From Candidatus Moranbacteria bacterium RIFCSPHIGHO2_01_FULL_55_24 (lineage in GTDB: Bacteria > Patescibacteriota > Minisyncoccia > Moranbacterales > UBA1568), in assembly GCA_001786575.1 (NCBI GenBank), contig MFRW01000010.1, positions 1 to 51,091 on the forward strand: 51,091 nt of DNA, read 5' to 3'. The notes beneath the pieces are model-generated. The model was not told the origin of the DNA. It did no database searches and worked only from the letters and a program-made list of their open reading frames with translations. Both the position numbers and the translations under genes were made by a program. Below, piece after piece: positions 1-28,649 of this stretch (positions are counted from its first letter, which is position 1; every line of letters starts with the position of its first letter).

Positions 1-491
1 GTCAGCTCGTGTCGTAAGATGTTCCGTTCAGTCGGGAAACGAGCGCAACCCCTGTGAAGTGTTATATATGTCACTTCAGACTGCCCTCTCATTTGTTCAG
101 AAGCGAAAGCTTGTGAATAGGTGAGAGGGAGGAAGGCGGGGATGACGTCAAATCAGCATGGCCCTTTGACACCTTGGGCGACACACGTGCTACAATGGCC
201 GATTAATAAAGGGTAGCCAACCCGCGAGGGGGAGCCAATCCCAAAAACTCGGTCCCAGTTCGGATTGAAGGCTGCAACTCGCCTTCATGAAGTTGGAATC
301 ACTAGTAATCGTTGATCAGCCACGCAACGGTGAATGCGTTCTCGGATCTTGTACTCACCGCCCGTCACACCAAGAGAGCTGGCAATACCAGAAGGCCCCG
401 GGTCAAATCGGGGACGACGGTAGGGTCAGTAATAAGGGTGAAGTCGTAACAAGGCATCCGTAGCGGAAGCTGTGGATGAATCACCTCCTTT
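1..491 (+). rRNA. rrs: 16S rRNA, 3' partial (window starts inside the gene)
   Basis: Universal 16S blocks read directly: GTCAGCTCGTGTCGT, AACGAGCGCAACCC, GGAAGGCGGGGATGACGTCAA, ACACACGTGCTACAATGG, CCGCCCGTCACACC, AAGTCGTAACAAGG. The anti-SD tail ATCACCTCCTTTCT ends near 491. Confidence 0.95.
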
Positions 492-5018: not shown

Positions 5019-5438
5019 ATGATGTACGCAGAACGCCTCGGTTTGGACCATGATTTCGCTTTTTCCGTCCACGGCGAAGCGGAACTCGACGTTCCGAGCC
5101 GCATGGTGATCTTCTTGTTCGTGCAGAACTACGAACTGACGAATGAGGAGTTCGGGTATTGTTTTGATTTTCCCGGCGCCGGATTGTGTCAGCCGAACTT
5201 CTTCACGATGGCGGACGTGCTCCGTCTCTTCTGGCAGCGGCGCGAGAAGCTCCCCATCAAAGACAGAAAAATGAATTTCCTGGCGTGCAGCGAGGATGAG
5301 AAAGTCTTCCTTGAGAGCTTCCTCCGCTGGGCATCGGAAATCCAGGAATGGGTGTTCGCTGGCTGCAGGGGACGCAAGAGCGTAGATTTCTTCAAAGCAG
5401 GCACTCCGTTTCTGGCCTGCTATGCGCTTCCCTCTTAG
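5019..5438 (+). CDS. hypothetical protein (orphan, 139 aa)
   Basis: Own promoter, SD GGAGGG 6 nt upstream of the ATG, and a terminator at 5457-5497. No family recognised. Confidence 0.7.
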   Translation: MMYAERLGLDHDFAFSVHGEAELDVPSRMVIFLFVQNYELTNEEFGYCFDFPGAGLCQPNFFTMADVLRLFWQRREKLPIKDRKMNFLACSEDEKVFLESFLRWASEIQEWVFAGCRGRKSVDFFKAGTPFLACYALPS

Positions 5439-5456
5439 CAGCTAATACGCTGCGAA

Positions 5457-5497
5457 CAAAAAGGCTCGGTGCGGATCGCATCGAGCCTTTTTCTTTT
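5457..5497. terminator. bidirectional intrinsic terminator
   Basis: AAGGCTCG ... CGAGCCTT stem flanked by A and T runs. It closes both the orphan ORF and the minus-strand tRNA operon. Confidence 0.75.
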
Positions 5498-5519
5498 TAT
5501 AAAAAATAAAAACACCCAA

Positions 5520-5552
5520 TAGGGTGACTAGATCGAACTCTCATTCAGGGTC
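5520..5552 (-). pseudogene. degenerate tRNA-His 3'-half copy
   Basis: Minus strand reads GACCCTGAATGAGAGTTCGAT..CTAGTCACCC. The true tRNA-His reads TACCATGAATGAGGGTTCGATTCCCTCTAGTCACC. The T arm is broken. Confidence 0.6.
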
Positions 5553-5573
5553 TTCTTAAGAAATGCTCAAAGG

Positions 5574-5645
5574 GGTGACTAGAGGGAATCGAACCCTCAT
5601 TCATGGTACCACAAACCATTGTCCTGCCATTGAACGATAGTCACC
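5574..5645 (-). tRNA. tRNA-His (anticodon GTG) with encoded G-1
   Basis: G-1 plus acceptor GTGACTA/TAGTCAC, anticodon arm ATGGT-TTGTGGT-ACCAT, T arm GAGGG-TTCGATT-CCCTC, discriminator C. Confidence 0.9.
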
Positions 5646-5660
5646 CCTCTATTCACTTCT

Positions 5661-5712
5661 TAATGATCACAATCCGCCAGCTGGCGGACCTACCATGAAA
5701 CGATAGTCACCA
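5661..5712 (-). pseudogene. degenerate tRNA-His 5'-half copy carrying a 16-nt palindrome
   Basis: Minus strand reads GGTGACTATCGTTTCATGGTAGG + TCCGCCAGCTGGCGGA + TTGTGATCAT. It matches tRNA-His positions -1 to about 23 and the anticodon loop. There is no T arm or 3' acceptor strand. Confidence 0.7.
5673..5688. repeat. 16-nt perfect palindrome TCCGCCAGCTGGCGGA
   Basis: Copy 1 of 3 of a near-identical GC palindrome. All three copies lie inside pseudo-tRNA 5' halves. Confidence 0.9.
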
Positions 5713-5730
5713 CACCGGGTGCTTTTCAAG

Positions 5731-5803
5731 TGCTCCGGGTTGGAATCGAACCAACGACCAATAGCTTAGAAGGCTACTGCTCTATCCACTGAGCTACCGG
5801 AGC
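5731..5803 (-). tRNA. tRNA-Arg (anticodon TCT)
   Basis: Acceptor GCTCCGG/CCGGAGC, anticodon arm GTAGC-CTTCTAA-GCTAT, T arm GTTGG-TTCGATT-CCAAC. Confidence 0.9.
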
Positions 5804-5849
5804 ATGCGGTAATCCCGGAACCTTTTTCGTGCGAATATTTCTAAACCGG

Positions 5850-5922
5850 TGGGTGTAGTAGGGCTCGAACCTACGACCGTTAGCTTAAGAGGCTACTGCT
5901 CTACCAACTGAGCTATACACCC
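5850..5922 (-). tRNA. tRNA-Lys (anticodon CTT)
   Basis: Acceptor GGGTGTA/TACACCC, D arm GCTC/GAGC, anticodon loop CTCTTAA, T arm GTAGG-TTCGAGC-CCTAC. Confidence 0.9.
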
Positions 5923-5934
5923 GAATACTTTTTA

Positions 5935-6007
5935 GCCGCATCCTTGTCTACGACCGTTTGCTTGAGAGTCCGCCAGCCGGCGGATCTACCAACCGAAGCT
6001 TACACCC
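5935..6007 (-). pseudogene. degenerate tRNA-Lys copy carrying the 16-nt palindrome
   Basis: Minus strand reads GGGTGTAAGCTTCGGTTGGTAGA + TCCGCCGGCTGGCGGA + CTCTCAAGCAAACGGTCGTAGACAAGG. It is colinear with tRNA-Lys. The palindrome replaces the anticodon-stem 5' strand. The T arm and acceptor 3' strand are lost. Confidence 0.7.
5969..5984. repeat. 16-nt palindrome TCCGCCAGCCGGCGGA
   Basis: Copy 2 of 3. Confidence 0.9.
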
Positions 6008-6046
6008 AAATAAAAAACGCTTCTAAAACGGATAAAGCGTACCGCG

Positions 6047-6075
6047 ATAGTACCAAGAAAATGCCAGCAAGTCAA
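6047..6075 (-). promoter_or_regulatory. sigma70-type promoter TTGACT-N17-TACTAT for the tRNA operon
   Basis: Read on the minus strand upstream of pseudo-Lys, tRNA-Lys, tRNA-Arg and tRNA-His. It is followed by the hairpin ACGCTT..AAGCGT plus a T run at about 6012-6040. Confidence 0.6.
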
Positions 6076-6084
6076 GATTTCGGG

Positions 6085-6738
6085 AAAATTAAAGGGCCCC
6101 GTGGTCAGTTGATACTGATACATACGGGGCCCTGTCTGCGTGAATGGTTCGATCGATCCGAGGTGATGAGCGAAATATCGCTCCCGAGGCCTGGATATTG
6201 ATCTGGAACCCTCTGAACGAGGAGGTCGCATCCTGTGCGACAGGCGAGCGATAATTCTCGCTATGCTTCCAGCGGGTGGGGATAGATATCCCTTGCCCTA
6301 GCTATCGGAACGGAGGATGCGTGGCGACGCGGTCATGCATGAGGATCGCTCCTTCTGCATTCAGTTAGCCCGGGCACCATTGCGTCGGGCTGGTGGCTCG
6401 GCACGGTCCGCTTCCTGCTTGAGGTGCGGGCCGTGCCAGCGCCGACGGGCGAATATCAGGCGGTCGAAATAACGGCAGCGCCGGCGTCGGCAGGGTCGGT
6501 GTCGGTGCACATCTCCATGGGCGGACTGGTCTGGGTAGACATCGTAGCCTCCTTTGCTGTGAGCCATTCAAAGAAAAAACGGTTTCCTTCGCCGGGAGCA
6601 GTATGGAGCGTGTCTCTTGCGAGAAGACGCTCCCTTTATGGGTATAAAGGACTGCTGCGGTAGCGGGGACCGGAATGGCGAGAGGAAGACGATAGAGTCA
6701 CCTGCCTTTCGCCATCCCGGTTCTTTATTTTTAAACAA
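6085..6738 (-). ncRNA. unclassified ~650-nt promoter-to-terminator transcript (structured non-coding region, possibly with a small ORF)
   Basis: Perfect TTGACA-N17-TATAAT promoter at 6745-6773. A terminator GGGCCCCGT..ACGGGGCCC plus TTTAATTTT lies at 6085-6132. Between them are many perfect hairpins and no convincing long ORF. Confidence 0.45.
6456..6542 (-). CDS. candidate 28-aa small ORF (MSTQTSPPMEMCTDTDPADAGAAVISTA)
   Basis: AAAGGAGG lies 5 nt upstream of the ATG. C/G-rich third codon positions resemble neighbouring genes. Too short to be judged from sequence alone. Confidence 0.25.
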   Translation of the reverse strand: MSTQTSPPMEMCTDTDPADAGAAVISTA

Positions 6739-6744
6739 CCAATT

Positions 6745-6773
6745 ATTATACACCCAAAAGCTTACTCTGTCAA
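6745..6773 (-). promoter_or_regulatory. consensus sigma70 promoter TTGACA-N17-TATAAT
   Basis: Both hexamers are perfect with a 17-nt spacer. A second TTGACA lies at 6782-6787. Confidence 0.75.
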
Positions 6774-6826
6774 GACTCATTTGTCAATATATCTATATTT
6801 TGCTTTAAATAAAGCAAAAGTCTTGA

Positions 6827-8110
6827 TCAAGGGTTCAGTCGCTTGTATTCAGCCCACTGCTTGTTGGACCAGTTTTTCGGCTTATCCGAGAGCTTCTGAT
6901 CTTCGCCTGGATGCGGGAAGAGCGCCGGAGACTTGTAGTTGCTCCAGAAGCTGTCCTTGATGAATTCTTTCCCGTCTCGGCTCACCATCTGGGTGAAGAC
7001 GGTCTTCATGCTGCCGTCCGGATTGCTCTGGAGGATATGCGGCCCATCCACAGAAACCGTCCGGCCGTCCTTGGTGCCGAAGAAGCGGAAATAGAGTTCG
7101 GTACCCTGGATGCTCGCCTGCATAAAGACAGAGTGGCCGGTGTTGTTCATGAATTTGAAATCAGGCCTCGGGACATAGACGGTCGCATCCATACCATAGG
7201 GCTTGTAGTACTGGACCGGGTAGGAGTGATTGCGCCGCTCGGTGATCTTCATGCCGCTCCAGATCGCCGCCCGGAAGACGGTGGTCGATACCTGGCAGAT
7301 GCCGCCGCCGAATTCCGGCTCGGTCTTGTTGTTCCTTATCACGAGTTCCGGCAGGTAGCCGTGCTCGCCATCGACTTCGCCTAAGTGTTCCACGAACGAG
7401 AATTCCTCTCCTGGAGCGATCATGACGCCCTGGAATTGCTGGATTGACCGGTTGATGTTGTAGATGCGGTTCTTGGGCGAGCCGGCGAAGTTCGTCTTGC
7501 CTTCACCGATCATTTCGCGGAGCCCGAGGCGTTCCTTGTCGCGCGCGGTAATCGCCGGGGCGACAGTCTCGACGGGAAGCCGGAGCGAGAATGCCTTCCC
7601 GGACTGCTCGCCCATAAGCGCCGTTTTCAGGATGGCCAGACTCTCTTCTTTGTTGACGGTCGCGCCTGGCGCTTCCGGGGTGGCGACGATGATCTTCCCT
7701 TCGCTGTCCCCAGCAAAGACCGCGTCTTGCGGATCCACGTCCGCCTTGGCCGCGAAGTCATCGAGGAACTTCTGGATCTTCTCCTCCGAAACGGAAGACA
7801 GGAGGACCGTCCGTACCTGGGCGCGCTTCTCCCGCGGCATGGCGAAATCGCAGAAGCGATAGCCGACCGGACAGAAGGCCGGGTTTTCGACCTCCGAGCG
7901 GTAGTCATGAGCGAATTGGCTCTTGGTCGATATGTGGAGCCAGGAAGAGACGGTCTCGCTCGGGACGGTTTCCGAATACGCGCCGGCGGAGACGGTAATG
8001 CTCGGGACAGACGAAGCGCTCACGGTTCCCGGCAAGATCAAAATCCCCAGGATGAAGAAGGGCAGGAGGTTTCTGGTATGGAGAGCTGAAGAGGGAAGGA
8101 AGAGTCTCAT
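6827..8110 (-). CDS. VanW family protein
   Basis: N-terminal signal/TM segment. VanW core GGGICQVSTTVFRAAIWSGMKITERRNHSYPVQYY. Confidence 0.8.
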   Translation of the reverse strand: MRLFLPSSALHTRNLLPFFILGILILPGTVSASSVPSITVSAGAYSETVPSETVSSWLHISTKSQFAHDYRSEVENPAFCPVGYRFCDFAMPREKRAQVRTVLLSSVSEEKIQKFLDDFAAKADVDPQDAVFAGDSEGKIIVATPEAPGATVNKEESLAILKTALMGEQSGKAFSLRLPVETVAPAITARDKERLGLREMIGEGKTNFAGSPKNRIYNINRSIQQFQGVMIAPGEEFSFVEHLGEVDGEHGYLPELVIRNNKTEPEFGGGICQVSTTVFRAAIWSGMKITERRNHSYPVQYYKPYGMDATVYVPRPDFKFMNNTGHSVFMQASIQGTELYFRFFGTKDGRTVSVDGPHILQSNPDGSMKTVFTQMVSRDGKEFIKDSFWSNYKSPALFPHPGEDQKLSDKPKNWSNKQWAEYKRLNP

Positions 8111-24763: not shown

Positions 24764-24812
24764 GGAGGAATGGTCCGCCAGCCGGCGGATTGAAGGCAGC
24801 AGTCTTGAAAAC
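24764..24812 (+). pseudogene. degenerate tRNA-Ser(TGA) 5'-half copy carrying the 16-nt palindrome
   Basis: GGAGGAATGG + TCCGCCAGCCGGCGGA + TTGAAGGCAGCAGTCTTGAAAAC. The flanks are identical to the true tRNA 76 nt downstream. The palindrome replaces the D-loop CCGAGTGG. The copy stops after the anticodon loop. Confidence 0.75.
24774..24789. repeat. 16-nt palindrome TCCGCCAGCCGGCGGA
   Basis: Copy 3 of 3. Confidence 0.9.
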
Positions 24813-24839
24813 GGAGATGCTCTCTAAAGTGAAATATCC

Positions 24840-24926
<87 letters not shown>

Positions 24927-24939
24927 CAAAATGAAACGA

Positions 24940-28373: not shown

Positions 28374-28520
28374 TGGCGGAGAGGGAGGGATTGAACGCGG
28401 ATCCGCCATTAGGCGAATCCTTCTGAGAACCCACGGTTCTCAGCGGCCTAAAGGCCTGCTCTCCTCCAACGGAAAACTCCCGTTTTCCGACCCTTTCCCC
28501 GTTCGAATCCATCCTACAGC
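28374..28520 (-). ncRNA. tRNA-Ser(GCT)-derived hairpin-rich RNA ending in CCA (not a foldable tRNA)
   Basis: The minus strand carries four consecutive perfect hairpins: CGGAAAAC-GGGA-GTTTTCCG, GGCC-TTTA-GGCC, CTGAGAACC-GTG-GGTTCTCAG, GGATTCGCC-TAAT-GGCGGATCC. These are followed by TTCAATCCCTCCCTCTCCGCCA, identical in its last 17 nt (TCCCTCCCTCTCCGCCA) to the tRNA-Ser(GCT) 3' end. A terminator follows at about 28340-28372. Confidence 0.5.
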
Positions 28521-28559
28521 AAAAGCAAAAATGACGCCACGAGGGCGTCATTCTTTACT

Positions 28560-28649
28560 TGGCGGAGAGGGAGGGATTCGAACCCTCGATGAGTTTTACC
28601 CCATGCCACGTTAGCAGTGTGGTGCCTTCAGCCGCTCGGCCACCTCTCC
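28560..28649 (-). tRNA. tRNA-Ser (anticodon GCT) with encoded CCA
   Basis: Acceptor GGAGAGG/CCTCTCC, anticodon loop CTGCTAA, long variable arm, T arm GAGGG-TTCGAAT-CCCTC, then G-CCA. A terminator hairpin ATGACGCC..GGCGTCAT lies downstream. Confidence 0.88.

Follow-up and report, generated by a model that had tools for sequence, protein, structure and literature searches.

Why should a working tRNA gene lie between degraded copies of its own two halves, with one of these copies carrying a perfect 16-nucleotide (nt) palindrome? The question is raised by the tRNA-His gene of contig MFRW01000010.1, from Candidatus Moranbacteria bacterium RIFCSPHIGHO2_01_FULL_55_24, positions 1 to 51,091, which is the whole stretch of DNA that was analyzed and which we describe here as 'the window'. 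The answer that we consider likely is that this 'sandwich' is a relic, one which has lost its open reading frame (ORF), of a selfish element that invades tRNA genes and that encodes, when intact, a small GIY-YIG protein (UPF0213/Slx1-like, ~85-100 amino acids). The family of such elements, apparently previously undescribed, can be viewed as a variant of homing-endonuclease-like selfish gene, with the palindrome as its unusual component.

The tRNA-His locus consists of the following parts, given in the direction of the tRNA (L008 is a syntenic relative, as considered below):

5664 to 5711, minus strand: displaced 5' part of the ancestral tRNA-His, from G-1 to about position 43 (match to the real gene; L008 leader).
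5673 to 5688, no strand: perfect 16-nt palindrome TCCGCCAGCTGGCGGA (sequence scan and RNA fold).
5646 to 5663, minus strand: spacer a, TTAAGAAGTGAATAGAGG, which separates the working tRNA-His from the displaced 5' part (sequence reading).
5572 to 5645, minus strand: working tRNA-His(GTG), including the encoded G-1 at 5645 (ARAGORN and Rfam).
5552 to 5571, minus strand: spacer b, TTTGAGCATTTCTTAAGAAG, ending in the second copy of the 8-nt repeat TTAAGAAG (sequence reading).
5522 to 5551, minus strand: displaced 3' part of the ancestral tRNA-His (alignment; L008 trailer).
5503 to 5526, minus strand: terminator-like hairpin CACCCTATTGGGTG plus T run, the 5' arm of which is the acceptor end of the displaced 3' part.

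ARAGORN calls the tRNA-His(gtg) at 5572-5644 (-). Rfam, an Infernal-type check such as the initial annotation had proposed, calls it at 5574-5644 with 58.2 bits, and at E<=10 over 5300-6200 scores the half-copies neither as tRNA nor as anything meaningful. The 5' copy, from 5711 to 5664 (-), reads GGTGACTATCGTTTCATGGTAGG, then TCCGCCAGCTGGCGGA, then TTGTGATCA. Prior to the palindrome, i.e., from G-1 to position 22, 20 of its 23 bases agree with those of the real gene. The palindrome then substitutes for exactly 8 nt (ACAATGGT), which comprise the last part of the D stem and the anticodon stem's 5' strand, with GTG retained in the anticodon loop which follows. As RNA, TCCGCCAGCTGGCGGA is predicted to form a 6-bp stem with a 4-nt loop (-10.2 kcal/mol). 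The 3' copy, from 5551 to 5522 (-), reads ACCCTGAATGAGAGTTCGA-----TCTAGTCACCC, thereby covering the gene from the anticodon stem (3' strand) as far as the acceptor end, apart from 5 nt which are deleted in the T loop; its local alignment score is 37 versus a maximum of 22 in 200 shuffles. The 8-nt direct repeat TTAAGAAG (CTTCTTAA on the plus strand) is found to either side of the working gene, at 5656-5663 and 5552-5559. Everything that the initial annotation described for this locus, i.e., an intact tRNA-His between degenerate 5' and 3' copies, the perfect palindrome, the GTG loop, and the 8-nt repeat, is indeed present.

An assembly artifact or adapter is ruled out by seven independent assemblies of the same strain (99.7-100% identical), which are concordant wherever they cover the region, together with the existence of diverged copies elsewhere. 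Certain simple origins were also considered and rejected. As the 8-nt repeat is part of no tRNA-His sequence, TTAAGAAG was not accepted as the target duplication of a simple transposition. A three-copy tandem array followed by two deletions is not parsimonious. The motif TCCGCCA, which equals a tRNA-Ser 3' end inclusive of CCA and so could hint at a snap-back or reverse-transcription origin, found no further support and is treated as coincidence.

What the broken halves represent is seen in relatives. L008, in which VanW is 64% identical, shares the Lys-Arg-His cluster with the window, but has only one tRNA-His there and is devoid of copies. The leader AAAAGCACCCGGCGG adjoins the real tRNA-His in L008, and in the window adjoins the broken 5' copy. 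Likewise, AAAAGCACCCGG stands directly before the displaced 5' His part in the window and directly before the single real tRNA-His in L008, and the trailer GGGTGTTTTT follows the real tRNA-His in L008 and the broken 3' copy in the window. The displaced copies furthermore retain states that are present in relatives, namely GGTAGG in His and AAGCAAACGG in Lys. The flanking halves, that is, are the ancestral tRNA-His, and the working gene lies between them. Among the possibilities raised upon initial annotation, that of gene replacement or duplication is therefore upheld by this comparison. L008 also possesses a terminator-like hairpin of the same design (CCACCCCAGCGGGTGTTTTTTT), and the 3' His remnant of the window may have been retained as part of a terminator.

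A second syntenic relative, L190, has an intact tRNA-His with native leader and trailer, after which comes a palindrome-bearing copy that begins in the D loop and continues as far as the 3' end. Its palindrome occupies the tRNA position seen in the window, a further 3' remnant comes after the copy, and there is no tRNA-Lys copy. The syntenic tRNA-His locus thus is seen in three states, i.e., without copies (L008), with a copy on the other side (L190), and as a sandwich (the window), which is a presence/absence polymorphism at one site among related genomes, as is characteristic of Seg-type elements. The events at this locus are recent, lineage-specific, and recurrent at the same site.

Such a history argues against a conserved functional leader or decoy. 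The initial annotation had suggested a co-transcribed tRNA-mimic leader or anticodon-loop decoy and, more generally, the palindrome-bearing 5' copy could be a selected leader that serves as tRNA mimic, processing signal, or regulator. The copy does lie inside the Lys-Arg-His transcription unit, which runs from a promoter-like site at 6075-6047 to the terminators, and the displaced copies probably are co-transcribed with that operon from this predicted promoter. The hairpin, at -10.2 kcal/mol, is stable as well, the anticodon loop is kept, and the layout is seen repeatedly, at several tRNAs and across many lineages. Rather than conservation with covariation at orthologous loci, however, what is found is that the copy is missing from L008 and otherwise arranged in L190, that the His and Lys copies have accumulated ~13% substitutions plus indels, that copy number differs among strains, and that palindrome position and copy extent vary among tRNAs. 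Nor does the copy fold any better than shuffled sequences, the hairpin itself excepted, and in intact elements it lies upstream of a nuclease ORF rather than of a tRNA. Selection as a leader consequently strikes us as very unlikely.

The association with a nuclease gene is seen at other loci. In L112, L053, and L088, palindrome-bearing tRNA pieces flank small ORFs with GIY-YIG motifs, and a hidden Markov model search places GIY-YIG ORFs at <=165 nt from the palindrome in 6 genome loci. These ORFs are confirmed as Pfam PF01541, with catalytic residues conserved. Metagenomes were then scanned using a 22-nt query, GGTAGR plus the palindrome, for which by our own estimate ~0.3 chance matches would be expected. 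At least 119 contigs, with at least 157 sites, were recovered. The matches listed are nearly all 5' copies of tRNA-Lys, and among the listed sites 84 have an intact tRNA, almost always tRNA-Lys, on the same strand <=600 nt downstream, with spacers between copy and intact gene of 15-150 nt or instead clustered at ~265-300 nt. A GIY-YIG ORF is present on 72 of the 119 listed contigs. At 45 listed sites this ORF starts within -50 to +150 nt downstream, and it is on the same strand in 45 of 45.

The canonical layout thereby seen, as read directly in L179, L167, L176, L158, and L197, is as follows: leader, positions 1-24 of tRNA-Lys, palindrome, CTTTTAAGCAAAC, ATG and an ORF of ~85 amino acids, stop, 5-30 nt, and then the intact tRNA-Lys. 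The insert found in intact relatives, that is, is an ORF of ~0.27 kb which starts ~10-20 nt past the anticodon loop. There also is a mirror form, in which the ORF is downstream of the intact tRNA and the palindrome-bearing copies are downstream of the gene. With loci chosen instead by protein only (P0122, P0124, P0125, and P0126), the same arrangement is found in 4 of 4, with the palindrome, either exact or as a 1-nt variant, in pseudo-tRNA-Lys copies beside the ORF and an intact tRNA-Lys.

The nuclease proteins are 77-102 amino acids in length and consist of the GIY-YIG domain only. Their closest solved structures are those of UPF0213 (1ZG2 and 1YWL, E ~1e-16), which are annotated merely as hypothetical proteins, followed by Slx1, with I-TevI reached only at E 0.003.

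Copy number varies as well. L372, L371, and L373 share an identical P0122 and the same gene neighborhood, and have, downstream of the working tRNA-Lys, one, two, and three palindrome-bearing copies of this gene, respectively, all of them 101 nt long and identical. (As a separate observation, the only intact tRNA-Lys of L371, at L371:3348-3422, reads anticodon ATT and not TTT, which ARAGORN calls as Asn-att, versus L372 and L373.) Tandem arrays of 3-6 units occur on other contigs (L147, L241, and L208). Loss of the ORF is seen too: in L105, what is left of the ORF is a fusion of its first and last codons, and ORF-less loci that are indistinguishable from the Lys locus of the window are common. 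A jackhmmer search of all ORFs >=45 amino acids found no GIY-YIG ORF in the 51-kb window, nor did tblastn find a degraded one there (best E 0.14), and the window copy thus can be no more than a relic. The initial suggestion of a tRNA-targeting miniature element holds in its tie to a tRNA-targeting mobile element but not as to its being a miniature one, since in intact relatives the structure is the flank of a gene of ~85-100 amino acids.

The same architecture had been noted at two other tRNAs of the window, and palindrome-bearing 5' copies are found there, at Lys-ctt and Ser-tga. A further locus, that of tRNA-Ser(gct), was absent from that first list. The relevant features are these:

5947 to 6007, minus strand: displaced 5' part of tRNA-Lys(ctt), positions 1 to ~52 (alignment).
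5923 to 5946, minus strand: spacer from the displaced Lys copy to the working tRNA-Lys (inside the L209 BLAST match).
5848 to 5922, minus strand: working tRNA-Lys(ctt) (ARAGORN, Rfam).
5730 to 5803, minus strand: working tRNA-Arg(tct) (ARAGORN, Rfam).
24764 to 24812, plus strand: displaced 5' part of tRNA-Ser(tga), positions 1-41 (score 49 versus a shuffle maximum of 26).
24813 to 24839, plus strand: spacer before the working tRNA-Ser(tga) (24840-24927), with GAGATGCTCTC at 24814-24824 (ORF 3'-end match).
28374 to 28417, minus strand: copy of the tRNA-Ser(gct) 3' end at 28374-28396 plus a degenerate palindrome-like hairpin, TTCGCCTAATGGCGGA, at 28402-28417 (alignment).

With <=1 mismatch the palindrome is found at 3 sites in the window (5673, 5969, and 24774), and with <=3 mismatches at 7 sites versus 0.5 expected. 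All three of the near-exact palindromes sit within 5' copies of the adjoining tRNA (His, Lys-ctt, and Ser-tga), with 8 nt substituted in each. The layout therefore recurs and, as had been supposed, is not a one-off decay product. In the Lys copy the palindrome, at 5969-5984, takes the place of GCAGTAGC, AAGCAAACGG is retained as in the real tRNA-Lys of L008, and the junction of GGTAGA, palindrome, and CTCTTAA is that of the metagenome elements. L209 and L236 are Moranbacteria-like contigs (GC ~0.52-0.55) which carry a live element and which align to the Lys region of the window. For L209 this is a 147-nt BLAST match at 79.6% that includes the 5923-5946 spacer, which by eye is similar to the L209/L236 spacer CAGGATGAGTAGCTCCAAAAAATCTC. 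In the Ser(tga) copy it is in the D arm that the palindrome (24774-24789) is found, in place of CCGAGTGG, and the tRNA-derived part matches the real gene at 100% identity. The 11-mer of its spacer, GAGATGCTCTC, equals the 3' end of the L209 GIY-YIG ORF (...ACAGAGATGCTCTC|GGGTCG) and occurs once in the 51-kb window, with a chance expectation, by our own estimate, of ~0.02 on both strands.

By eye, the His, Lys, and Ser spacers are alike. Spacer a of tRNA-His, which has a motif in common with the Lys and Ser spacers and occupies the position of the nuclease ORF of intact elements, we infer to be an ORF remnant. At tRNA-Ser(gct) the 3'-end copy lies 163 nt downstream of the working gene, and we read this downstream region as a fourth relic of the same kind. 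The stretch as a whole, 28374-28560 (-), holds tRNA-Ser(gct), a terminator, ~130 nt of GC-rich mini-hairpins, TTCGCCTAATGGCGGA, the 23-nt 3'-end copy inclusive of CCA, and a second terminator.

At His, Lys, Ser(tga), and Ser(gct) a partial copy bounds the insert and an intact gene has been restored, which is the pattern of att repeats. Phages, integrative and conjugative elements, and islands at tRNA genes duplicate part of the gene as such repeats (Williams 2002, as cited in PMC9897764), and integrative elements along with CRISPR spacers are known sources of tRNA fragments (PMC9897764). Might the half-copies instead, then, be att remnants, left by integrase-mediated integration and subsequent loss of a phage or island, or products of tandem duplication and decay, with the palindrome a later insertion? 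Integrative elements are well known to leave partial tRNA copies close to tRNA genes (PMC9897764), and there is a resemblance to attR-type repeats in the 3' copies of tRNA-His and tRNA-Ser(gct). The Pfam-scanned ORFs of window positions 1-33 kb, however, yielded neither an integrase nor any other gene of a mobile element. Copy and gene are separated by 17-163 nt, not by kilobases, and 3'-targeting integrases do not leave 5' copies. The palindrome, too, keeps to one tRNA position across well over a hundred independent contigs, and the gene inside intact versions is for a GIY-YIG nuclease rather than an integrase. A remnant of integration, or duplication with decay, is in our estimation highly improbable, and integrative elements and CRISPR spacers were set aside as the source of the fragments given the missing integrase, distances of tens of bases, and mostly 5' parts. 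A tRNA-invading element does resemble tRNA-targeting integrative elements in inserting into a tRNA gene, in restoring a complete gene with a supplied copy, and in leaving a partial-copy scar. It differs in lacking an integrase, in size (~0.3 kb versus 10-100 kb), in duplicating mostly the 5' part, in the disabling of the displaced copy by a fixed palindrome, and in scars forming tandem arrays.

The palindrome itself is not tRNA-specific. A scan of one genome per species gave at least 120 loci and at least 133 sites, with, among the matches listed, 83 sites in low-GC (<50% GC) loci. The low-GC hosts include Saccharibacteria, Shapiro-, Gottesman-, Curtiss-, Specht-, and Harrisonbacteria, Bacteroidota, Elusimicrobia, and Cloacimonadota. 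By our own estimate, a 16-mer with 12 G/C occurring by chance in low-GC genomes is very improbable. The fully symmetric center, AGCT, is found at 63 of the 83 low-GC sites versus 21 of 50 in high-GC genomes (again among the matches listed), and the high-GC matches look like chance matches inside ORFs. At listed low-GC sites tRNA-derived flanks are seen in 9 of 83 (~11%), which still greatly exceeds the genome share of tRNA genes. Low-GC genomes repeat the window design at Lys-ttt with the same junction (L105), at Gly as three tandem units (L124), and at Cys (L018), Arg (L050), Asn (L112 and L088), and Met (L053). Among viral contigs, 16 of 120 listed palindrome matches were low-GC and none of these adjoined a tRNA or GIY-YIG ORF, so these contigs provide no evidence for a phage vector.

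The initial annotation had held that a palindrome which is a generic repeat, or orthologous loci without halves, would speak against its reading, the latter by pointing to recent debris. To a degree both are seen, with most listed low-GC sites lying away from tRNAs, L008 lacking copies, and L190 differing. Notwithstanding this, what the structure bears is the mark of a specific selfish element and not that of random debris.

At its sites the palindrome takes the place of 4-11 nt of the target, with variable flanking bases, and neither target-site duplication nor a defined target motif, as would mark a MITE or REP, was found at its copies. The tRNA segments which are replaced are themselves mini-palindromes (CC-GAGT-GG, GC-AGTA-GC, AC-AATG-GT, and CCTTG-C-CAAGG). 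The palindrome also is found at the apex of longer inverted repeats (L089, L074, L117, L072, and L073) and inside repeated elements. In Patescibacteria genes it is read in frame as PPAGG (L024:1801, L012:5392, L067:966, L107:880, L096:5034, L099:2843, and L063:772), with motifs in the flanking translations making these genes look CysRS-, UvrC-, RecJ-, and Pth-like. The 51-kb window has 3 copies, and other loci, of 8 kb, have as many as 4 each (L041, L071, and L102). Other short, perfect, GC-rich palindromes (CCTGCCTGCCGGCAGGCAGG, CAACCCTGGCCAGGGTTG, CCCCTCTCGAGAGGGG, ATCCCGAGTACTCGGGAT, and CCCGCTATAGCGGG) are seen near sites in the low-GC genomes L038, L046, L047, L031, L027, L013, and L071. 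Some such palindromes are nested in displaced tRNA copies (L158, L190, and L197), and there may be a wider family of GC-rich hairpins.

From such a distribution it could be argued that what is mobile is the palindrome, i.e., a hairpin 'mini-element' which is moved in trans and which inserts at hairpin tips, much as with REP or MITE sequences, mitochondrial GC clusters, or the palindromic elements of Rickettsia. Genes for tRNAs would then merely be the richest targets in AT-rich genomes, with only insertions into spare partial duplicates surviving, and the GIY-YIG gene would be either the trans-acting enzyme or an unrelated co-tenant of tRNA loci. Consistent with this are the identity of the 16-mer in many phyla amid unrelated flanks, its apex and in-frame PPAGG locations, the mini-palindromic nature of the replaced tRNA segments, the 63 of 83 versus 21 of 50 difference in AGCT centers, and the small number (9 of 83) of low-GC sites with tRNA-derived flanks. 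Against it, the replacement of 4-11 nt proceeds without target-site duplication, and we know of no enzyme that moves a 16-nt unit. In the window, furthermore, 3 of 3 of the 5' partial duplicates carry the palindrome, and none is found with <=1 mismatch elsewhere in the 51 kb, which points to coupling with duplication rather than to chance insertion. Within the tRNA-Lys family, the palindrome is a constant part of the element, set at one position upstream of the ORF. We view independent mobility of the palindrome as unlikely.

How, then, might a tRNA-invading GIY-YIG element give rise to what is observed, that is, the recurrent architecture, the same-strand nuclease linkage, and the polymorphism in presence and copy number? 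A tRNA gene that is still intact would be broken by the nuclease. Its repair, whether from a template that bears the element (homing) or by the unequal sister-strand route that has been shown for phage SegB, would then leave part of the recipient's gene as a displaced copy and at the same time would rebuild one intact gene, so that the host keeps its tRNA. The nuclease gene would be transcribed from the tRNA promoter, the palindrome would abolish both the tRNA fold and the presumed target site in the displaced copy, and after fixation the ORF would decay. In the window, tRNA-His would have been invaded from both sides, tRNA-Lys and tRNA-Ser(tga) from 5', and tRNA-Ser(gct) from 3', with the nuclease ORFs since lost and spacers of 17-27 nt left. 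This break-and-repair mechanism, taken by itself, we propose tentatively and at somewhat under an even chance.

Various points weigh against the relic interpretation. The nuclease link of the His locus itself would be by analogy, given that the 51-kb window has no nuclease gene, and it is at the Ser locus that the sole direct remnant of an ORF, of 11 nt, is found. The metagenome sample was picked by the palindrome itself. Among the matches listed, ~80-90% of low-GC genome sites are without tRNA-derived flanks and without a nearby nuclease ORF, which is not something that a simple 'one target site' homing model predicts, and palindrome position varies, i.e., D loop (Ser, Cys, and Asn), anticodon arm (Gly), or T arm (Arg). 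No DNA-binding domain capable of reading a long asymmetric site, as with Seg-type nucleases, was found in the proteins, which are bare catalytic domains, so sequence-specific recognition of tRNA genes is not accounted for. The intact tRNA copy still holds the presumed target, leaving immunity unexplained, as is the writing of a fixed 16-mer into the displaced copy.

The palindrome and the UPF0213/Slx1-like GIY-YIG protein might even be a two-component mobile system of a new kind, an idea which is speculative and, as we judge it, rather improbable. A structure-specific nuclease would cut DNA hairpins at their tips, be they those of tRNA arms, terminators, or further inverted repeats, and the tip would be rewritten to one fixed 16-nt hairpin. 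With resident tRNA copies so disabled, and the element supplying or preserving the only working copy, a tRNA 'addiction' would result. If true, then this would be the smallest mobile DNA unit known, spreading across phyla, with the host unable to lose the element.

Searches of the literature for the 16-mer, for GIY-YIG in tRNA or Candidate Phyla Radiation (CPR) contexts, and for UPF0213/YhbQ, not all journals being covered, found the arrangement described nowhere. One of the nearest analogues of a tRNA-invading GIY-YIG element is found among phages, another being selfish hairpin DNA. SegB, a GIY-YIG homing endonuclease of phage T6 that is associated with tRNA genes, causes breaks which along with recombination drive tandem amplification of tRNA segments (PMC13096335), and it is found in the T-even phage tRNA gene cluster (Brok-Volchanskaya 2008, as cited in PMC13096335). 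As with Seg-type genes, the elements considered here are small GIY-YIG genes among tRNA genes, present or absent among related genomes. The SegB process, with its nuclease-driven breaks, its recombination, and its amplified segments in which the 3' end of the ORF abuts the 5' end of a tRNA, can be likened to that proposed for the present elements and their predicted nuclease. Unlike with SegB, the hosts here are cellular (Patescibacteria and others) rather than phages, the protein is only a catalytic domain of 80-100 amino acids (UPF0213/Slx1-like) without a DNA-binding domain, and the ORF lies between a displaced partial tRNA and the intact gene, with an invariant 16-nt palindrome in the displaced copy.

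A second comparison is with selfish hairpins. The palindromic elements of Rickettsia, reportedly described as selfish palindromic DNA by Ogata and others in 2000, are one such case. Others are the GC clusters of yeast mitochondria (PMC4478555) and the hairpin elements of sponge mitochondria (PMC2800124). Like these, the palindromes considered here are GC-rich hairpins scattered through AT-rich genomes, found intergenically, in RNA genes, and in frame in protein genes, with the PPAGG sites resembling the in-frame insertions of the Rickettsia elements. Unlike these, the palindrome is only 16 nt, is identical across phyla, replaces a few bases rather than duplicating its target, and in one large sub-family is physically linked to a nuclease gene. 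A third comparison is with REP and REPIN sequences, which are short, dispersed palindromes mobilized by RAYT (HUH) transposases. A possible resemblance is that of a short palindrome dispersed in numerous copies, which may be served by a single-copy enzyme gene that is flanked by repeats, and a further one is that the palindrome is preceded on its 5' side, at His and at Lys, by a GTAG motif. Differences are that the enzyme is GIY-YIG rather than HUH/Y1, that GTAG is here the tRNA D loop and is missing at the Ser site, that the palindrome is perfect and much shorter, and that no REPIN doublets were seen.

Regarding the neighborhood of these loci, the named homologues of the adjoining VanW gene are from Moranbacteria or Patescibacteria, which places the organism in the CPR. 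Upstream of the displaced Lys copy is the promoter-like site noted above:

6047 to 6075, minus strand: TTGACT-17-TACTAT (consensus match only).

By eye there is no convincing -35/-10 pair in the anticodon-loop/spacer region, and TTGAAA-18-TATCGT (5729-5700, from the end of tRNA-Arg to the start of pseudo-His), a 9/12 match only, was judged spurious. Between the VanW gene and the tRNA cluster are ~800 nt without a called gene, 6000-6830 (-). A perfect match to a promoter, TTGACA-17-TATAAT, is found here (6773-6745), as are a structured, GC-rich stretch and an ORF of 28 codons (MSTQTSPPMEMCTDTDPADAGAAVISTA) that is preceded by AAAGGAGG; Rfam at E<=0.1 gave no match over 6000-6830. The working tRNA-Lys(ctt) and the adjacent tRNA-Arg(tct) are identical at 44 of 51 bases over positions 8-58, which suggests either common origin or homogenization. 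The window begins, 1-491 (+), with the 3' end of a 16S rRNA gene, after which come protein-coding genes rather than a 23S gene. No other rRNA genes were found in the window, and the rRNA genes appear to be unlinked. The independent short-read assemblies L003 and L006 end within 10 nt of a palindrome (window 5960 and 5670, respectively), and palindrome repeats seem to fragment CPR assemblies at tRNA loci.

A tRNA-invading GIY-YIG element accounts for a number of oddities of CPR and low-GC genomes, namely the tRNA fragments that lie beside tRNA genes, the breaking of assemblies at these loci, and the presence of 'PPAGG' inserts within proteins. The findings indicate a selfish element that is widespread yet, it would seem, undescribed, and they suggest what would be the first biological role for the UPF0213 GIY-YIG proteins, which are small. 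If the break-and-repair mechanism is true, then it would show how a nuclease gene can reside in essential, highly expressed tRNA operons of minimal genomes without host death, and would extend the phage SegB paradigm of nuclease-driven tRNA-segment amplification to cellular genomes.

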